Shown here in pieces: positions 12,735-40,672 of a stretch of DNA of 64,000 nucleotides (positions within the stretch are counted from its first letter, which is position 1; each line of letters begins with the position of its first letter). The notes below the pieces were generated by a model. The model saw only the letters and a program-made list of their open reading frames with translations, ran no database searches and was not told the DNA's origin. The position numbers and the translations under genes are program-made. This stretch comes from an uncultured Candidatus Saccharibacteria bacterium. GTDB lineage: Bacteria > Patescibacteriota > Minisyncoccia > Phycocordibacterales > DSPV01. Location: positions 203,589 through 267,588 of the forward strand of contig CAZTXT010000001.1 of assembly GCA_964617735.1 (NCBI GenBank), written 5' to 3'.

Positions 12735-13427
12735 ATGAATCCAGAAGAAGTGAAAAAGGAAGAGGTGATCGAAACAGGGGCTCCAGCCGTTGCACAAGCT
12801 CCTGCCTCCAACTCCAACGCGCCCGCGAAGAAAGAGCGTTTTTTCTCTGCGGCGCCCGATCGCCAGTCTTTGCGGAAAAAGAACGTCCGTCGCAGCTCTC
12901 GTGAGCCGCGGGCGCGTTCCGAATTCGACCAGAAAATCATCACTATACGCCGCGTTGCGCGTGTCTCGAAAGGCGGCCGTCGTTTCAGTTTCAGCGTAGC
13001 GATGATACTCGGCAATCGCCACGGATCGGTCGGTGTCGGTACCGGAAAAGGCTCTGATACGGCTATCGCCATCGACAAAGCGATGCGCAACGCCAAAAAG
13101 AACATGCGGCAGCTCATGCTCACTCCGTCGAGCTCCATCGCGCACCGCGTCGAAGCGAAATTCTCCAGCGCGCGCATCATGCTCCAGCCCGCGCCGGGCC
13201 GCGGTGTGGTCGCGGGAAGCGCGGTCCGCTCTGTCCTAGAGCTCGCCGGCATCAAAGACATCACGGCAAAGATATTCTCTCCAAGCAAAAACACGCTCAA
13301 CACCGCCCGCGCTACCCTGCAGGCGCTCTTGCAGTTGCGGACACGGATACCACGGACTACAAAGGCAGGTGTTAACGAAAGCGCGCCCGTGGCTGCGGCA
13401 GAGGTAGCAGCGCCGGCGAGCGAATAG
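12735..13427 (+). CDS. rpsE: 30S ribosomal protein S5 (extended N- and C-termini)
   Basis: ITIRRVARVSKGGRRFSFSVAMILGNRHGSVGVGTGKG; ends with the LELAGIKDI motif. Confidence 0.93.
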   Translation: MNPEEVKKEEVIETGAPAVAQAPASNSNAPAKKERFFSAAPDRQSLRKKNVRRSSREPRARSEFDQKIITIRRVARVSKGGRRFSFSVAMILGNRHGSVGVGTGKGSDTAIAIDKAMRNAKKNMRQLMLTPSSSIAHRVEAKFSSARIMLQPAPGRGVVAGSAVRSVLELAGIKDITAKIFSPSKNTLNTARATLQALLQLRTRIPRTTKAGVNESAPVAAAEVAAPASE

Positions 13428-18607: not shown

Positions 18608-19033
18608 ATGCACCGGATCCCGCTCTTCATTTCTTTCGTGGCGACTATTTCGGTAGCGATCCTGTTTGGCTTGGCAGAGCGGTATGATCTTCTCTGGCGC
18701 ATCTGGTGGTATGATATCCCGCTGCATTTTCTAGGAGGGGTCGCGCTCGGCGGTTTAGCCATCTGGTCTATCCACGCCTATGCCAAGCGAGAGAACAGGG
18801 TTTTTACGGGAGGGCAACTCTTTTTGTGGACGCTTCTCTTGGTGCTCATTGCCGGGCTTCTTTGGGAATTACAGGAATATCTCTCCGGCAATACGTTTAA
18901 TACCATCGGGAATTATCCTCTCGATACCTTCAAAGATTTGATTATGGATCTTTTAGGCGGAGCTCTCGCCTATTGGCTGGGTAATCGGCGCTCTCCGATA
19001 GTGTCGGCTTCTAACCTCGATGCAAAGCTCTGA
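18608..19033 (+). CDS. hypothetical polytopic membrane protein (141 aa)
   Basis: ATG at 18608 (the ORF call starts at an upstream TTG); 4 predicted TM helices; extended -10 (TGtTATACT) just upstream. Confidence 0.55.
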   Translation: MHRIPLFISFVATISVAILFGLAERYDLLWRIWWYDIPLHFLGGVALGGLAIWSIHAYAKRENRVFTGGQLFLWTLLLVLIAGLLWELQEYLSGNTFNTIGNYPLDTFKDLIMDLLGGALAYWLGNRRSPIVSASNLDAKL

Positions 19034-20405
19034 ATCTTCGATCACTTTTTATGGCGGGGTCGGAGACGCAACCGGCTCGAATTTTCTTTTTGCGATAGGC
19101 AGTGATACCGGAGTGCCAGAGCGGGTGCTTGTTGACTGCGGGCTCATGCAAGGAGCGCCCGATGCGTCAGAGAAAAATGCACGGCCATTCGCTTATGAAC
19201 CCTCCTCCATCGATGTCCTTTTGATCACACATTCCCATGCCGACCATATCGGCCGGGTCCCTAAGCTCGTCAAAGAAGGATTCAGGGGCCCGATCTATTC
19301 GACGCCGGAGACCAAGATGATCGCGGAGCTTATGTTCGACGATATGCTCAATATCATGGCACACGATGAGGAGAAGAAAGGCATAGCGCCGATGTATGAT
19401 GCGAAAAACGTCGCTGATGCGCTCTTGCAGTGGAAAGAGCTGCCCTATCACACCCCGCTTGCTCTTAAAAACGGCGTGACCATAACCCCTAAAGATGCGG
19501 GGCATATCCTCGGCTCATGCTTTTATGAATTTGCGCGCAATGGCCGGACGGTCGTCTTTTCCGGCGATCTTGGCAACACCCCGTCTATTCTCGTGCGTGA
19601 TACGGAGCCACTGCTACGGGTTAATTACCTGTTGGTTGAAAGCGTCTATGGCGATCGCAATCACGAGAATCGCGACGAGCGACGGGAGAAACTGCGCGCT
19701 GCGGTTCTCGCTGCTATAGAAAGAAAGAGCGCACTCATTATCCCCGCGTTCTCCATAGAGCGCAGCCAAGTCATCCTCTATGAGCTCAACAATTTGGTGG
19801 AGGAGGGGAAAGTGCCCTCCGTGCCGGTTTTTCTGGATTCGCCGCTTGCCATAAAAGTCACCGAGGTCTACCGAAAGATGAAAAAGGATTTCAAGCCCGG
19901 AGTGCAAGAGGAGATCGCCGGCGGCGATGACATCTTCAAGTTTCCGCGACTGCAGTTGACGGCGACCCACCAGGAGTCAGAGCGCATTGATCTGGTGCAG
20001 AGTCCGAAGATCATCATCGCCGGCGGCGGCATGTCAGAAGGGGGAAGGGTGGTCAGTCATGAAGAGCGGTATTTGCCCGATCCCCGCAACCTAGTGCTGT
20101 TAGTAGGCTATCAGGCGGTTGGTACGATGGGGCGCGCGCTCCAGGACGGAGCACATACGGTCACTATTCGTGGCAAGCAGATCCCCGTTCGCGCCGAAAT
20201 CCGTCTCATCAGCGGCTATTCGTCCCATAAAGATTCGGACCACCTCGTAGAGTGGGTCGCCAGCTCGGCAGAAACCCTGAAAGAAGTATTTGTCGTCATG
20301 GGCGAGCCGAAGTCTTCGATGTTTCTGGCCCAACGCCTGCGCGACGAGCTTGGGGTCAATGCAGTATTTCCGGAAGTGGGAAGTACACATCAGATCGAAT
20401 TTTAG
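19020..20405 (+). CDS. metallo-beta-lactamase/beta-CASP family ribonuclease (RNase J / CPSF-like)
   Basis: HSHADHIG (HxHxDH), GSCFYEF, SGD, ESVYGDR motifs. Confidence 0.8.
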   Translation: MQSSESSITFYGGVGDATGSNFLFAIGSDTGVPERVLVDCGLMQGAPDASEKNARPFAYEPSSIDVLLITHSHADHIGRVPKLVKEGFRGPIYSTPETKMIAELMFDDMLNIMAHDEEKKGIAPMYDAKNVADALLQWKELPYHTPLALKNGVTITPKDAGHILGSCFYEFARNGRTVVFSGDLGNTPSILVRDTEPLLRVNYLLVESVYGDRNHENRDERREKLRAAVLAAIERKSALIIPAFSIERSQVILYELNNLVEEGKVPSVPVFLDSPLAIKVTEVYRKMKKDFKPGVQEEIAGGDDIFKFPRLQLTATHQESERIDLVQSPKIIIAGGGMSEGGRVVSHEERYLPDPRNLVLLVGYQAVGTMGRALQDGAHTVTIRGKQIPVRAEIRLISGYSSHKDSDHLVEWVASSAETLKEVFVVMGEPKSSMFLAQRLRDELGVNAVFPEVGSTHQIEF

Positions 20406-26540: not shown

Positions 26541-26567
26541 TGGAGATGCCTGAACGACGTTAGAACC
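26541..26567 (+). repeat. conserved intergenic box, copy a (TGGAGATGCCTGAACGACGTTAGAACC)
   Basis: near-identical copies at 27369, 28822 and a more diverged one at 39764; each 13 nt before an AAAAAAACC-hairpin (minus-strand terminator). Confidence 0.6.
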
Positions 26568-27054: not shown

Positions 27055-27368
27055 ATGTTGTTGTTCACTACAGGATCGGTTTCTTAACCAGTGCAGGTAA
27101 GAAATCGATTTCTGCAGTGAACAGATATGGACCCAAATTTCAAGGTTCTGTCACCGGGGAATACTATCACGTATTTTAGTATCATGTCAAGTCGCTTCAA
27201 AGGCAGAGTGTCCTAGGCATTTGCAATCCGCTAAGTGCTCTCGACCCCGCCTCGCTGCCGCAATAGCGGCATGCTCCGTCTTTCGACTCCTCTCGAAAGC
27301 GAATCAATTCGCTTTCTCATCACCATCGAAAAAACAAACCACCCATGCGGGCGGGTTACGTTTGTCGT

Positions 27369-27395
27369 TGGAGATGCCTGCACGACGTTAGAACC
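27369..27395 (+). repeat. conserved intergenic box, copy b
   Basis: TGGAGATGCCTGCACGACGTTAGAACC; shares ~40 nt including upstream CGTTTGTCGT with copy a. Confidence 0.6.
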
Positions 27396-28821: not shown

Positions 28822-28848
28822 TGAAGATGCCTGAACGACGTTGGAACC
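28822..28848 (+). repeat. conserved intergenic box, copy c
   Basis: TGAAGATGCCTGAACGACGTTGGAACC. Confidence 0.6.
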
Positions 28849-29375: not shown

Positions 29376-29390
29376 TGGAGATGGGCAGAA
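29376..29390 (+). repeat. direct repeat of the tmRNA 3' terminus (TGGAGATGGGCAGAA)
   Basis: matches 15/16 with TGGAGATGGGCGGAAT at 29579..29594 (complement of the ssrA 3' end), ~200 bp away. Confidence 0.55.
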
Positions 29391-29579
29391 GTTACGCGGA
29401 TCGGCTACAAGTTTTACCTTGCCGTCGCTCGGTAAACTTGCAGCCCACCCCTCGCGATTTTTTCTGCTGAAAAAATATCGCTGCGGTCTTCGATTCCGCA
29501 CGTGAGCGAAACCCTTCGCTCACTCCACTCCAATTAAGAAAAATCGCCCGCCATGACTGGCGAGCTGATTTTTCAAAAT

Positions 29580-29971
29580 TGGAGATGGGCGGAATCGAAC
29601 CGCCGTGCAAAGGGTGAATTGGGGAAAGTCTACACGATGTAGTCGGTCTTTTGTTTTCGGCGCTCGTACTATAAGAGCGACAGAACATACGAGAGCTTAT
29701 TCTCTATGGTTCGGATGTGAACCGAGAAGGGAGCACGTCCTAGCCCGAAAATATCATGCCCCGCGATGCGATTCAGGCGAGCGCACCGGGAACACGTTTA
29801 CGTATTATGCGTAAACGAAGGCGAGGTCCTTCGCTCCGAAATACGGAGAAACGATGGCCTTTGCCTTTGCAACTGCGTTTTTGGCAGTTATGGTTTCCAG
29901 CAGTTTATGGAGTTACTGGAGCTCCATCGCGCATTCCAAAAGACATTCCTTTGTCTATGCCGTTCATCCCC
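29580..29971 (-). ncRNA. ssrA: tmRNA (ssrA), ~392 nt, CCA not encoded
   Basis: 5' GGGGAUGAACGGCAUAGAC pairs with 3' ...GGCGGUUCGAUUCCGCCCAUCUCCA (T-arm plus acceptor); tag ORF ends at a UAA inside a CGUUUACG/CGUAAACG hairpin loop; directly downstream of smpB; terminator hairpin follows. Confidence 0.8.
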
Positions 29972-30966: not shown

Positions 30967-32844
30967 ATGGAGCCTAAAAAACCCAAGCTAATCCTGAATC
31001 TTTCGACTGCGCTCATCATCTTTTTGGCGCTTACCCTTTTGTATTCGCTTATCTCGGAAAATCAAACGCCGAGCTCGGAAGTCGCGCTCTCGGAGCTCTC
31101 ATCCGATATCAACGCGGGCAAGGTGACGGAGATTGCGATCAACGGAGACAAGATCGAGATAACGTACCGCGGAGAGACGGAAACTAAAACGGCGCGCAAG
31201 GAAGACAATGTTTCATTAAGCGAGTCGCTGGTGAATTTTGGCGTTGATAAAGCGAAGCTCGGGGCGGTCAAAGTACTCGTGAAAGCGCCTTCAGGTTTTA
31301 CGTTCTGGTTCGTCAATCTTGCACCATTCATACTACCGATGATCTTTATTTTGGTGTTCATATGGTTTTTGACCCGGCAAGTGCGCGGTGCAGGCATGCA
31401 AGCATTCACCTTCGGCCAATCGAAAGCGCGGATGATCGCTCCCGATGACAAACGTCAGCGGGTTACCTTCAAGGACGTTGCGGGGGTCAAAGAGGCGAAA
31501 GAGGAGCTCACCGAAGTGGTTGATTTTCTCAAGAACCCCCGGAAATTCTTTGAGATCGGCGCACGCATCCCCAAAGGAATACTCCTGATGGGTGCGCCCG
31601 GAACGGGAAAGACGCTCTTGGCACGCGCAGTTGCGGGCGAGGCGGGAGTCTCATTCTTCTCGATCTCGGGTTCCGAATTCGTCGAGATGTTCGTCGGTGT
31701 CGGCGCATCGCGCGTCCGCGATCTCTTTAAACTCGCGAAGCAAGTCTCTCCCGCCATCATCTTTATGGACGAGATAGACGCCGTCGGCCGGGTGCGTGGT
31801 ACCGGAGTGGGTGGCGGCAATGATGAGCGTGAGCAGACCCTCAACCAAATACTCGTCGAGCTCGACGGCTTCGAGCCCACTGAAAAAGTCATCGTCATGG
31901 CCGCGACGAATCGTCCCGATGTGCTCGATCCGGCGCTTCTGCGACCCGGGCGATTCGACCGACGCGTCGTGCTCGATCTTCCCGACCGGGGCGATCGCGA
32001 AGAGATTCTCAAGATACACTCGCGTCAAAAGCCGTTCGCCGAGGATGTCAATCTCTCCGTCATTGCGGAGCGTACCCCCGGATTTTCGGGTGCTGATCTC
32101 TATTCGTTGATGAATGAGGGAGCGATACTCGCCGCTCGTGAAAATCGGACGAAAGTGTCGCAGTACGATCTCATCCGCGCGATCGAGAAGGTCATGCTCG
32201 GGCCCGAGCGCAAGAGTCACCTGCTCTCCAAGAAAGAAAAAGAGATCACTGCCTATCATGAAGCAGGGCACGCGCTTGTCGCTTCGGTCCTGCCCTACGC
32301 CGACCCCGTACACAAAGTCTCGATCATCTCCCGCGGCAGAGCCGCGGGCTACACGCTCAAGCTTCCGCTTGAAGATCGCAAACTCCAATCACGAAAGGAA
32401 TTTCTCGATGACATTGCGGTGAGCCTCGGTGGCTACGTCGCGGAGGAATTGGTTTTCGGGGATGTGACGACCGGTCCTGCAAACGATCTACAGGTGCTGA
32501 CCGCGCTTGCGCGCGACATGGTCACCAAATATGGCATGTCCGAGAAAGTCGGGCCGGTTGCCCTTGAAACGGCGGGAGGAGTGCCTTTGTATGGGAAAGG
32601 AACATGGAGCGAGAAAGAATACTCGGAGCGGGTGAGCGCCGAGATCGATGCCGAAGTGTCGTCGCTTATCGCCAGTGCGATGAAAAAAGCGAAAGACATC
32701 GTTACGGGACAGAGAAAAGCGCTCGACTCAATCGCCGCAAAACTCATCGAAGTGGAGACCATCGAGCGGGAGGATTTTGAGACACTGCTGATCGCAAACG
32801 GCATCATGCCGAAGAAAAAGGGTAGTATCGAGCATCAGGCATAG
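30967..32844 (+). CDS. ftsH: ATP-dependent zinc metalloprotease FtsH
   Basis: Walker [25 protein letters not shown] zinc motif, two N-terminal TM helices. Confidence 0.95.
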
Positions 32845-32919
32845 AGCCGAGTGGTCGAGCCGTCTTTTCTTTTCTCCTAGGTTTATTACACTTGAGGTGC
32901 GCAGGAACCTTTTCTGCAA

Positions 32920-32993
32920 CCGCCCTTAGCTCAGCTGGTTAGAGCAACGAGCTTATACCTCGTAGGTCCTTGGTTCGAATCCAAGAGGGCGGA
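32920..32993 (+). tRNA. tRNA-Ile (anticodon UAU), no encoded CCA
   Basis: cloverleaf: acceptor CCGCCCT/AGGGCGG, D arm GCTC-AGCTGGTTA-GAGC, anticodon stem ACGAG/CTCGT with loop CTTATAC, T arm CTTGG-TTCGAAT-CCAAG. Confidence 0.85.
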
Positions 32994-33142
32994 ATATAGA
33001 GCGAAGCGAAATATTCCGCCCTAGCACGCAAATCATTTTGCGTGCGGCTGGATTCGAACAGCGGAGCGATGTTTGCCTCTTCGGCAAACCGCGAGCTGGT
33101 GCCCAGGCCAAAGCGAGCGACGGCGAGCTTTGAGTCGCGGGC

Positions 33143-33159
33143 GAATCCAAGAGGGCGGA
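33143..33159 (+). repeat. direct repeat 1 of the tRNA-Ile 3' end (GAATCCAAGAGGGCGGA)
   Basis: 17/17 identity to 32977..32993. Confidence 0.6.
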
Positions 33160-33316
33160 TACGCGTTAAGAAAATCCAAACCGCTTTGGATTTTTAGCGT
33201 ATCCGAGCCGCAGCATCCGCCTCAGGCGGAGCGAGGCGGGGTCGCGAACACTTGGGCTTTTGGAATTTCTCGATTCCAAAAGACTTAGTGATTCGTGACG
33301 ACACTTAGCAAAGCCG

Positions 33317-33333
33317 ATCCAAGAGGGCGGAAT
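33317..33333 (+). repeat. direct repeat 2 of the tRNA-Ile 3' end (ATCCAAGAGGGCGGAAT)
   Basis: 17/17 identity to 32979..32995. Confidence 0.6.
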
Positions 33334-33391
33334 CTTTTGAATACCCACCCTTTTCCGATGCAATTTCATTTGCGGAGGGTATAATATCTCT

Positions 33392-34507
33392 ATGCGAAAA
33401 ATGCGCAAAGGTTTCTCCCTCATCGAGCTCTTGACGGTCATTTCGATCATCACGCTGTTGGCCAGTATTTTCTTCGCGGTGACCGCTTCCTCGTATCGCA
33501 AGGGCAGGGATGCAAAGCGTATCGAACAGGTTCACCAGATAGACCTCGCAGTCCAGCATTACAAGGCGGACAATAATGGGAACGCTCCCACGCTCCAAAG
33601 CACCTGTGGAGCAGACAAGTCCTACGCCGCTTCATGTGTCGCGGTTTCAAGTGCCGCTCCGAATACCGCCGAAGCAGCCGGATGGACCAAATTCAAAAGC
33701 GATATCCAGCCCTACATGCCTGCAGTCCCCGACGATCCCTGCGGTTCAAGTTGCACGAGCGCTTCCGGTGGCCCCGTCGGCTACACGTACGTCTCACCCG
33801 CGGCGATGAACTATCTCTGCGGTAATTTCTGCGATACGACCGGTGCCAGCCTGGCTGATTCGTATCAATTGTACGCGACACTCGAAGCGACTTCGACCCC
33901 TTCCGGGAGTTCGAGTTTCGGTTCGTTCTTCTTCCCCTCAAGTTCCGCTCCGACCATCACCTTCTCGGCAAACCCCACTTCGGTGAGCGCCAACGGACAT
34001 ACGCTGCTGACGTGGTCGACTGCCAATGCAACCTCGTGCACGGGGAGCGGCTCCGGCAGTGTGGGCTCCTGGCCAGGTTCCAAGACTTTGTCGGGAAGTC
34101 TTGACCCTGGCGCGATTCAAACCACAACGACCTTTACCCTCAACTGCAACGGTTCGGGTGGTTCGACGAGCCAGAGTGTGGTGGTGATCAGTGGCAGTGC
34201 TCCTCCGGTCTTGAACTTCTCTGCAGATCCGACTGCCATCATAGCAGGAGAGAGTAGCACGTTGACGTGGACCACCTCGGGTGCGACCCCCCCGTGCGGG
34301 ATTTCAGGCACACTAGAAGTAGGAGCAGGCCCATTCCCAGGCCTCCCCCTACTTGTATCTGCATCAGGCAGTACCCGTGTAACTCCAGGGGTCGGAGCTT
34401 TTCAGCCGGATACCGCGACGTATACCCTTTCCTGTACTGGTCCCGGGGGCAATTCGAGTCAAAGCGTTTCCATAACCGTTACTCCCTTTACCCCATCCCC
34501 ACCGTAA
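33392..34507 (+). CDS. large type IV pilin-like protein with two C-terminal Cys-containing beta-repeat domains
   Basis: MRKMRKGFSLIELLTVISIITLLASIFFAV prepilin N-terminus; Ser/Thr/Gly-rich; repeats ending ...Y(T)L(S/N)C(T/N)G(P/S)GG.S.QSV. Confidence 0.75.
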   Translation: MRKMRKGFSLIELLTVISIITLLASIFFAVTASSYRKGRDAKRIEQVHQIDLAVQHYKADNNGNAPTLQSTCGADKSYAASCVAVSSAAPNTAEAAGWTKFKSDIQPYMPAVPDDPCGSSCTSASGGPVGYTYVSPAAMNYLCGNFCDTTGASLADSYQLYATLEATSTPSGSSSFGSFFFPSSSAPTITFSANPTSVSANGHTLLTWSTANATSCTGSGSGSVGSWPGSKTLSGSLDPGAIQTTTTFTLNCNGSGGSTSQSVVVISGSAPPVLNFSADPTAIIAGESSTLTWTTSGATPPCGISGTLEVGAGPFPGLPLLVSASGSTRVTPGVGAFQPDTATYTLSCTGPGGNSSQSVSITVTPFTPSPP

Positions 34508-40409: not shown

Positions 40410-40544
40410 AATTTAATAATTTAATTTTTAAAAAAGCCTATTCGTGTATGAATCTGTTTCATTATTCAACACGTAACCTCACCATTATATTGGTTAAAAG
40501 TTTCTTTTGCACGACGTAAGGTGTATAGATTGTTTTTATGTAAA

Positions 40545-40631
40545 CGGAGGAGGTGGGATTCGAACCCACGGGACCCTTTTAGAGGTCCACGGTTTAGCAA
40601 ACCGTTCCGTTAACCGCTCCGGCACTCCTCC
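40545..40631 (-). tRNA. tRNA-Ser (anticodon GCU), long variable arm, no encoded CCA
   Basis: acceptor GGAGGAG/CTCCTCC, anticodon stem ACGGT/ACCGT with loop TTGCTAA, variable arm GGACCTCTAAAAGGGTCCC, T arm GTGGG-TTCGAAT-CCCAC. Confidence 0.85.
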
Positions 40632-40672
40632 AGAGAGCTTACTTTAAACTTTTAAGTCGCAACTTTCAACTT

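Follow-up and report, generated by a model that had tools for sequence, protein, structure and literature searches.

Why should the 3' end of a transfer RNA (tRNA) gene be found twice more in the short stretch of DNA that follows it? The question is raised by a tRNA-Ile gene with the anticodon UAU (32920..32993, plus strand) in a stretch of 64,000 nucleotides from an uncultured Candidatus Saccharibacteria bacterium (contig CAZTXT010000001.1, positions 203,589 to 267,588), hereafter the window. The last 18 nt of this gene, CGAATCCAAGAGGGCGGA at 32976-32993, recur on the same strand at 33142-33159 (18/18, 100%) and at 33314-33331 (16/18, 89%, with the last 15 nt exact), and an earlier note on this DNA, written from the sequence alone, took the arrangement for what repeated integration and excision of small elements at a tRNA attachment (att) site leaves behind. 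We have found that 32994-33331 holds two tandem members, U1 and U2, of one family of conserved, structured, non-coding modules. This family is not specific to tRNA-Ile, since it also trails the genes for transfer-messenger RNA (tmRNA), tRNA-Ser(GCU) and tRNA-Ala(GGC), and the way in which its members vary argues that selection acts on the folded single strand of the module.

The 15-mer ATCCAAGAGGGCGGA occurs exactly three times in the 64 kb, against 0.00 occurrences expected from 100 shuffles. An inverted-repeat search showed that a hairpin joins the tRNA to U1 (32986..33022, plus strand); in it the 3' acceptor strand of the tRNA plus ATAT pairs with ATAT plus an inverted copy of that strand; the two arms, AGGGCGGAATAT (32986-32997) and ATATTCCGCCCT (33011-33022), form a perfect 12-bp helix, are 13 nt apart and enclose the loop AGAGCGAAGCGAA (32998-33010), with no T-run and nothing terminator-like about the hairpin. 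The second arm, which we call the anti-acceptor segment (33011..33022, plus strand), is the reverse complement of the last 8 nt of the tRNA and of 4 nt of its trailer. It is followed by a branch hairpin with a 9-bp stem (33024..33045, plus strand), placed by folding and gap analysis at the acceptor/T-stem junction of the inverted copy, and then by an anti-T segment (33049..33059, plus strand), where TGGATTCGAAC is the exact reverse complement (11/11) of the T-loop region GTTCGAATCCA, covering the T-loop and the start of the 3' strand of the T-stem. The z scores of the fold against shuffles are -8.2 for 32920-33340, -6.65 for U1 and -5.5 for U2. The earlier note had thus described the locus well: the two recurrences of the tRNA 3' end, the 12-bp inverted copy at the opening of the first unit, the T-arm-like fragment and the richness in hairpins are all there. 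It went astray in calling the two units unrelated in sequence, as both contain the same conserved core.

Folded alone, U1 takes a closed form (-80.4 kcal/mol, z = -6.65, 28% of the ensemble) in which UCCGCCCU pairs with AGGGCGGA and GGAUUCG with CGAAUCC, with the branch hairpin between these two closing helices and the hairpins P2 and P3 inside them. In this predicted fold the direct repeat at 33142..33159 supplies the 3' strand of the closing helix of U1, and the inverted copy its 5' strand. The general plan of the modules, read 5' to 3', comprises a leading hairpin (H0), which is usually an intrinsic terminator; an anti segment, split by a branch hairpin; the core; and a copy of the 3' end of the upstream gene. 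A module can be closed by pairing between its anti segment and its copy, and this is why the tRNA 3' end is seen repeated at this locus together with an inverted copy and a T-arm-like piece.

The core is about 100 nt long and has two conserved hairpins: P2, interrupted by a GGA/GA internal loop, and the long P3, whose closing stem GGUCGCG/CGUGAC includes a conserved G.U pair; its conserved strings read GGC-GGA-GCG ... CGC-GA-GCC-GGGGUCGCG ... (C/U)GUGAC. Iterated nhmmer searches levelled off at 15 matches, and covariance models were needed to go further. A seed alignment of 14 cores (A2), which included the three full units of the window, gave the model R1; 90.7% of the cells in its helices were paired, against 35-41% in controls with slid pairing partners, and 14 of 20 pairs showed compensatory changes. 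In 1.36 Mb of related genomes R1 gave 33 matches at E <= 1, some 20 of which had E < 1e-9, and metagenome contigs yielded 27 more. These 27 metagenome cores (A3), with no sequence from the window among them, were used for a second model, R2. In A3, 90.9% of cells are paired (31-44% when slid), 17 of the 20 pairs have compensatory changes, and the covariation score is 0.559, a value that none of 500 shuffles reached, against 0.05-0.11 for slid partners, in an alignment that had been fitted to the model. Over 45 cores, 65 cells hold G.U and 5 hold A.C, with one G.U pair nearly invariant; the fold must therefore be read on the sense strand of the upstream tRNA or tmRNA, t(m)RNA for short.

In the 64-kb window R2 recovered exactly three full modules and, weakly, part of a fourth. 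The U1 core lies at 33048..33150 (plus strand; 54.6 bits, E = 1.1e-12), with P2 and its GGA/GA internal loop at 33060-33097 and the long P3 at 33101-33142, in agreement with the fold. The U2 core lies at 33194..33308 (plus strand; 53.9 bits, E = 1.7e-12), with P2 at 33207-33237, P3 at 33238-33299 and the ending CGTGAC-GACA; since R2 matches both, U1 and U2 are homologous. U2 opens with its own H0 (33160..33205, plus strand; inverted-repeat search and fold), a terminator-like hairpin made of an A-run, AAAATCCAAA/TTTGGATTTT and a T-run, with an outer stem TACGC/GCGTA followed by TCCG, the complement of the CGGA that comes before; with too few G-C pairs, this hairpin went unflagged in the terminator scan. 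The strongest match is a third full module on the other strand, directly 3' of the tmRNA gene (29580-29971), at 29376..29579 (minus strand; 77.1 bits, E = 1.4e-18; fold z = -8.9). It has every part of the plan: H0 at 29539-29573, for which the terminator scan did call an intrinsic terminator (29565-29546), an anti-acceptor segment (29523-29533), a branch hairpin (29503-29522), an anti-T segment (29489-29499), the core (29395-29499) and a copy of the tmRNA end (29376-29386). A partial fourth module (27175..27365, minus strand; 18.6 bits, E = 0.003) retains a terminator hairpin (27329-27365) and a truncated core (27175-27292) and is preceded by a repeat resembling the tmRNA 3' end. As the strand-specific fold holds both for the minus-strand tmRNA unit and for U1 and U2 on the plus strand, it points to RNA and not to a DNA structure linked to replication.

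The family matches nothing that we could find described. Searching 32000-34000 against Rfam 15 at E <= 10 returned the tRNA, its antisense shadow and one chance match of 13.6 bits; the units in the loci of five relatives had no match at E <= 1, and those in the window and three further loci had none at the gathering thresholds. Nor did we find this motif in the literature. Hammerhead, HDV-like, twister, hatchet and pistol ribozymes gave no match in the same searches (E <= 10 or E <= 1); a few units do contain GAUGAG-like strings, but the rest of the hammerhead core is missing. Y-RNA-like RNAs, the signal recognition particle (SRP) RNA and the LOOT RNA gave no matches to the units either. We also dropped a protein-coding interpretation, as the open reading frames (ORFs) that overlap the units are spurious and the helices change by compensatory substitutions. 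We put the modules, folded elements of 100-200 nt, forward as a candidate for a new family of RNA. Some relatives carry variant types, with a long hairpin ending in a UGUAA loop or with P2 missing (GGGGUCGGG...CCCGYGG), in which the order of anti segment, core and copy is kept; they are found at L007 8228-8375 and 14634-14761, L012 12383-12530, L216, L258, L262 and L069 (L-numbers label loci in related genomes and metagenome contigs). R1 missed these or scored them poorly, and the family is broader than the model.

The modules keep close to stable RNA genes. All tRNAs in the related loci were scanned for units ending in a copy of the upstream gene's 3' end, and similarity searches followed. 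Units of 130-220 nt were found after tRNA-Ser(GCU) (L007, L012, L015, L069) and after other tRNA-Ile genes (L007, L058), and the similarity searches showed that in many genomes tmRNA genes are trailed by such units as well. Among the 45 cores, 31 lie no more than 120 nt 3' of a t(m)RNA gene called by ARAGORN, on the same strand, the upstream genes being tmRNA, tRNA-Ile(UAU), tRNA-Ser(GCU) and tRNA-Ala(GGC), and 5 more come directly after another unit; what precedes nearly all the others is a tmRNA not called by ARAGORN, the copy of a tmRNA end or the edge of a contig. At least 36 of the 45, and probably 43 or more, thus directly follow a t(m)RNA gene or another unit, and the modules are always on the strand of that gene. 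The cores group mostly by type of locus, across genomes and genera, and not by genome: in the main group of tmRNA units and in the short-form group after tRNA-Ile, nearest neighbours come from other genomes. This grouping points to long vertical residence with local tandem duplications, of which L012 (98% identity), L015 (99%) and L023 (90%) are examples. The short form runs from H0 through GUCCG and the core to GUGAC-GAC; U2, whose nearest relatives are in L221 and L212, belongs to the tRNA-Ile short-form group and is the counterpart of the module that follows tRNA-Ile in many relatives. The closest relatives of U1 are in L294 and in the tRNA-Ser unit of L293, the latter being also closest to the window's tmRNA unit.

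Two further arrangements were seen in this survey. In L228 (847-1049) a module follows a tRNA-Ala(GGC) gene that encodes its CCA; the downstream copy includes the CCA, and the anti segment complements ACCA and the T stem and skips the acceptor strand. In L294 (1-275), whose contig starts inside the feature, a core separates the variable region from the T stem of what looks like the 3' half of a tRNA-Ile (ATATACCTCTGGGGT[core]CCTTGGTTCGAATCC...), and is followed by a second unit, of the U1 subtype, with ends that match a different T arm.

Which of the two gene-derived parts, the anti segment or the downstream copy, is the one that is kept? The anti segment is the reverse complement of the last ~20 nt of the upstream gene (the 3' part of the T-loop and the 3' strands of T-stem and acceptor), split at the T-stem/acceptor junction by a branch hairpin of ~25 nt. 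We compared 15 long-form units with the last 20 nt of their own gene, allowing a single gap. The anti segment matched the reverse complement at 273 of 300 positions (20/20 in 5 units), with a gap of 18-28 nt at the T-stem/acceptor junction in 11 of the 15 and equivalent branch hairpins there; the downstream copy matched at 236 of 300. Unit by unit, 11 favour the anti segment, 2 the copy and 2 tie, so we reject the claim that the anti segment is always the better kept; a first, crude count (37 against 48 mismatches) had been equivocal. Under a more permissive, gapped alignment, of 31 positions at which copy and t(m)RNA disagree the anti segment sides with the t(m)RNA at 30, and never with the copy. 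When the anti segments of the tmRNA units were scored against the tmRNAs, the unit's own tmRNA came first, or shared first place, in 11 of 11 genomes, also where the T-loop varies (TTCAATT, TTCAACT); in L273 it is the copy that retains the commoner tmRNA end, and gene and anti segment have a different T stem in common. By these comparisons complementarity to the t(m)RNA 3' end is kept up, and the copy behaves more like a fossil. Selection may be one cause of the maintained complementarity.

The nature of the anti segment can be defined further. In the tmRNA units it reads GGAG, where the tmRNA 5' end reads GGGG (G3.U70); having A opposite U70, it corresponds to the 3' strand in reverse complement and does not duplicate the 5' half, and the idea of a duplicated tRNA or 5'-half copy was rejected on this test. 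It complements the genomic trailer bases (ATAT, ACTC) and not CCA, and we accordingly rejected an analogy with primer-binding sites, which pair with a mature CCA end.

Recombination at these gene ends is evidently common in the clade, and the direct repeats are most simply read as its footprint. Downstream of ssrA, three 27-nt direct repeats, GGTTCYAACGTCGTKCAGGCATCTYCA (28822-28848, 27369-27395 and 26541-26567, minus strand; 3 matches against 0 expected in a sequence search), resemble the tmRNA 3' end and bracket segments of ~0.8 and ~1.4 kb, with ORFs of 115 amino acids (aa; with Cys pairs), 220 aa (DUF3592), 160 aa and 135 aa (Nfu_N) between them; the array looks like a tandem accretion of integrase-less cassettes. 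L012 and L015 have nearly identical duplicated modules around small cargo, and in other relatives 3' halves of tRNA-Ile are repeated, some accompanied by small ORFs and some not (L013, and many contigs in which the period is 81 nt). What was found at the tRNA-Ile locus fits an att scar in part: direct repeats of the tRNA 3' end (18/18 and 16/18) flank the insert, but no integrase, transposase, reverse transcriptase or recombinase domain, nor an integrase remnant, is present among the 38 ORFs of the window that were scanned (E <= 1e-5; E <= 0.01 in one scan), and the register of the crossover is not constant, as it differs between long and short forms. In the relatives, the ORFs next to the units show no such gene in inspected ORF lists, for which domain searches were not run, and look unrelated to each other.

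Mini-inserts of a second kind also occur. They consist of a complete tRNA-Ile(UAU), a conserved spacer of ~45 nt (CGGANATTTGCA...GTGCGAGCG...ATATGGAA) and a copy of the tRNA 3' half that starts in the anticodon loop, with a period of 81-82 nt (L245 1649-1752, L250 4694-4796, L265, L297, L299, L235, L246 and others). As another sign of recombination at these genes, an insert of ~190 nt in L033 (~12890-13150, minus strand) appears to interrupt the anticodon loop of a resident tRNA-Ile(UAU), whose 5' and 3' halves have been displaced to either side of it. The insert brings along a complete tRNA-Ile(UAU), the acceptor stem of which differs.

The explanation that we favour, giving it about an even chance of being right, is that the modules were installed by att-like duplication and then retained as cis RNA elements. 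Campbell-type recombination, or a duplication, at a t(m)RNA 3' end would install a module and leave the direct repeat; the module would then be kept as a functional RNA, made by co-transcription with the t(m)RNA gene or by read-through from it, and the partner of its anti segment would be either the upstream t(m)RNA precursor, at its 3' strand, or the downstream copy. The likeliest task of such a module would be to take part in forming the 3' ends of t(m)RNAs, or in processing or disposing of their read-through transcripts. Strong covariation, strand-specific G.U pairs and grouping by type of locus all indicate selection on a folded single strand. The genomes of Patescibacteria are tiny and contain hardly any non-coding DNA; a module that is kept across genera, and is found 3-4 times in these 64 kb, is therefore unlikely to be idle. 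We also entertain, tentatively and as rather improbable, that the anti segment and branch hairpin form a built-in mimic of the t(m)RNA 5' half, pairing with the last ~20 nt of the adjacent precursor or gene. If true, this could be an undescribed class of element, either a cis RNA for 3'-end maturation or quality control of read-through transcripts in these ultra-small bacteria or, in another form, a module that encodes no enzyme of its own and homes to the ends of t(m)RNA genes by base pairing. The window encodes a candidate nuclease for t(m)RNA trailers, a 461-aa ORF (19020-20405) with metallo-beta-lactamase, Beta-Casp and RMMBL domains that is RNase J-like.

Several observations weigh against installation by duplication followed by retention as cis RNA. 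By eye, H0 is a textbook terminator in most relatives, and a core behind a canonical terminator would depend on read-through alone for its transcription; in the stretch examined for promoters nothing promoter-like was seen. In the grouping of cores, U1 and the tmRNA unit of the window fall among units from other types of locus (the tRNA-Ser unit of L293, and L294) and not with their own type. The distribution is patchy, with a short-form core after ~11-19% of tRNA-Ile loci, which argues against an indispensable role, and long-form anti segments (>=17/20 matches) are rare (4 of 146 tRNA-Ile and 4 of 34 tRNA-Ser genes). Long forms repeat the gene from the T-loop to the 3' end, short forms only its last 3-4 nt (GAC(A)) and 1-6 nt of trailer, and so variable a register fits poorly with a single fixed recombinase crossover. 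The alignments A3 and A4 were fitted to the structure of the model, which favours that structure; and R2 was built without window sequences, yet its A3 cores had been found with R1, whose ascertainment remains. Finally, it is possible that quasi-palindrome templated repair between inverted repeats ~40 nt apart maintains the complementarity without selection.

The same facts can be read as the work of an active, non-autonomous mobile module, miniature integrative or similar to a miniature inverted-repeat transposable element (MITE), moved in trans by a recombinase encoded elsewhere. We regard this as a serious rival, if on the unlikely side. Anti segment and copy would fold single-stranded DNA into a mimic of the duplex target, as in the attC sites of integrons and the attP of phage CTX, or would act as a base-pairing guide; the module would home to t(m)RNA ends and regenerate its target at the far end, so that arrays build up. 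Direct target repeats do flank each unit, tandem arrays of two units occur in the window and in L278, L296, L259, L023 and L021, an insertion is nested in L259, and the core inside a tRNA 3' half in L294 and the patchy presence among relatives speak for movement too. In L007 the tRNA-Ile and tRNA-Ser units share a 71-nt core that is 87% identical, with ends that match their own tRNA, and the subfamily of U1 and the window's tmRNA unit is found also after tRNA-Ser (L293) and in L294. Strand-specific G.T pairs would suit a folded single strand of DNA as well. However, no mobility gene was found in the window ORFs or in the ORF lists of the relatives, the grouping of cores by type of locus argues against frequent movement, and an orientation that follows t(m)RNA transcription on both strands of the window fits RNA better than single-stranded DNA linked to replication. 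Repeat length and register vary, and exact-pattern scans of IMG/VR, a limited test, returned no family member: a loose core pattern gave at least 120 matches, and none of 80 of these loci searched with the covariance model matched, whereas a second pattern gave 5 matches, none convincing, which says only that the core is uncommon there as an exact pattern. That the units are inert remnants of integration and excision, attL/attR-like and with no present function, was the view of the earlier note. Its att-type duplication is a reasonable origin, since tRNA and tmRNA 3' ends are classic integration targets, the tmRNA locus of the window has att-like repeats around ORF cassettes, repeated tRNA-Ile 3' halves abound (L013 and many metagenome contigs) and downstream copies do decay. 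The debris part of the view is what fails: neutral debris would not keep a common fold across genera (17/20 compensatory pairs, 65:5 G.U to A.C), nor would it preserve the match between an anti segment and its own t(m)RNA as the copy drifts, and homology links U1 with U2 and both with units at other genes. Inertness thus appears unlikely to us, and the covariation may be said to have largely refuted it already.

Two explanations carry still less weight. According to one, which we think very unlikely, the units are degenerate tRNA or tRNA-like genes, duplicated with large insertions or made of permuted or split halves, and read by the tRNA-processing machinery. The closing helices of U1 are as long as an acceptor stem (8 bp) and an extended T-stem (7 bp), with one branch hairpin between them, and the copy ends at the discriminator base; but neither ARAGORN nor Rfam at E <= 10 calls a tRNA in the units, the anticodon arm is missing, the 5' strand does not copy that of the gene but is complementary to the 3' strand, with A facing U70 in the tmRNA units, and its complementarity extends to trailer bases beyond the gene, and short forms have no minihelix at all. 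According to the other, which is scarcely credible, the locus is a collapsed or chimeric repeat region, as short repeats beside a tRNA can confuse assemblers. The earlier note had raised this doubt, together with that of repeats confined to a single sequence. The same 664 bp were found, with zero differences, in the separate Logan assembly of run SRR12313479, a run which may itself be the source of the window; dozens of independent assemblies, made in many different projects, show this architecture too; and each unit has unique internal sequence. Indels at the repeats were assessed by cross-species presence and absence, none of the 95 metagenome contigs with the same tRNA 3' end being from the same species (minimum of 2 mismatches in the tRNA).

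The tRNA from which all this departs is in itself of interest. ARAGORN calls it tRNA-Ile(TAT), Rfam (RF00005) gives it 70.4 bits against a gathering score of 29, so that the cloverleaf is above threshold, and the anticodon loop CTTATAC can be read directly in the sequence; CCA is not encoded and the discriminator base is A. The anticodon UAU given by the earlier note is thus confirmed. Its remark that this anticodon is uncommon in bacteria holds for well-studied bacteria, in which tRNA-Ile(UAU) is rare and UAU-type decoding of AUA is documented for a few that are without tilS (PMC3575796), and does not hold here: tRNA-Ile(UAU) lies near ftsH in ~60 of 80 related genomes, most of the 95 metagenome contigs that share the tRNA 3' end have tRNA-Ile(UAU), and the UAU anticodon is the norm of this lineage, the Paceibacteria (Patescibacteria), and no peculiarity of the locus. 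The FtsH of the window, for which an exact look-up returned no entry, is 54-78% identical to proteins of Patescibacteria metagenome-assembled genomes (labelled Taylorbacteria, Paceibacterota, Kaiserbacteria and Nomurabacteria). AUA accounts for 32 of 142 Ile codons in four long ORFs of the window. The window has two CAU tRNAs, one initiator-like (C1.A72 mismatch) and one elongator-type with an encoded CCA, and no TilS domain was found in the 38 of its ORFs that were scanned, the rest of the genome being outside the 64-kb scope. The tilS-independent decoding of AUA in Mycoplasma mobile (PMC3575796) is alike in its unambiguous UAU anticodon, with AUA well used here; it differs in that the loss is sporadic there, whereas UAU is lineage-wide in the Paceibacteria, the status of tilS and tRNA-Ile(CAU) here being that of 64 kb only. 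We found nothing specific in the literature on tRNA-Ile(UAU) in the candidate phyla radiation, and it is now documented as a norm of the Paceibacteria.

As for the neighbourhood, smpB and ssrA lie on one strand and ftsH and tRNA-Ile on the other, followed by a convergent recG. The gene downstream of U2, which the earlier note had called a giant pilin gene, proves to encode 371 aa with a prepilin N-methylation motif (N_methyl). We rejected a functional link between it and the modules, as the gene after the unit varies among relatives. A perfect TATAAT at 33380-33385, 6 nt before its ATG (33392), suggests that this pilin-like gene has its own promoter and a leaderless or near-leaderless mRNA. 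Of the serine tRNAs, only tRNA-Ser(GCT) is present in the window (40544-40632); in many relatives ARAGORN calls beside it, and often divergently, a tRNA-Ser with the anticodon ACT (A34), as at L007 14396-14485, L012 14871-14960, L015 17234-17323, L037, L039, L043, L044, L055 and L060. An unmodified ACU anticodon would be unusual.

How do these modules compare with systems already known? The LOOT RNA (RF03000), a candidate small RNA, shares their neighbourhood in one relative, L020 (8506-8624, minus strand; 71.3 bits against a gathering score of 46.4), where it lies ~115 nt beyond a tmRNA-trailing unit; at Rfam gathering thresholds it is not present in the window, L021 or L028. Its fold of four hairpins differs, and it matches neither U1 nor U2 nor the tmRNA unit. 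Mimics of tRNA, such as the tRNA-like domain of tmRNA, viral tRNA-like structures, mascRNA and YrlA, resemble the long forms, the closing helices of which copy acceptor and T-stem strands and which end at the discriminator base. In the modules, by contrast, the T loop is replaced by a core of ~90 nt, there is no Rfam match, short forms have no mimic, and the conserved complementarity is directed at the upstream gene and not within the unit. This complementarity could bear on how stable RNAs are finished and policed in organisms with reduced sets of RNases or, alternatively, could show how small elements home to tRNA genes without their own enzyme.

REP/BIME, ERIC and Correia elements are, like the modules, 100-200 nt long, devoid of ORFs and rich in strong hairpins, and lie after genes or terminators in several copies per genome. 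Here, however, placement next to t(m)RNA genes is near-exclusive, the ends come from the local target with no fixed terminal inverted repeats, and the cores group mostly by type of locus and form no single genome-wide population. A comparison with MITEs or other insertion-sequence derivatives turns on the same properties: the ends of the modules are mutually inverted but locus-specific, copying the local gene, and the copies are confined to the flanks of t(m)RNA genes. With the attC sites of integrons and the attP(+) hairpin of phage CTX, used by XerCD, they share a structure that is conserved over sequence, strand-specific wobble pairs, an inverted repeat that could rebuild a duplex target, and arrays of units; they differ in having as target a t(m)RNA end instead of attI or dif, an orientation that follows the transcription of the upstream gene and no R/L box signature, and no link to IntI or Xer was seen, no test having been aimed at one.

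A close parallel to their outward form is offered by the attL/attR borders of tyrosine-integrase islands, which likewise leave direct repeats of a gene's 3' end, from T-loop to end, downstream of an intact t(m)RNA gene. Tandem accretion of such islands and their integrase-less, cis-mobilisable remnants find their counterpart in the repeat arrays described here, and in the cargo cassettes between the repeats of the tmRNA locus. In contrast to the islands, no integrase was found in the window ORFs and U1 and U2 carry no cargo; their interior is a conserved folded core that appears to be under selection, an inverted copy of the target lies inside it, and the register of the repeats varies. For annotation this has a practical bearing: repeated tRNA 3' ends in these genomes should not by themselves be taken to mark the borders of a prophage or an island.

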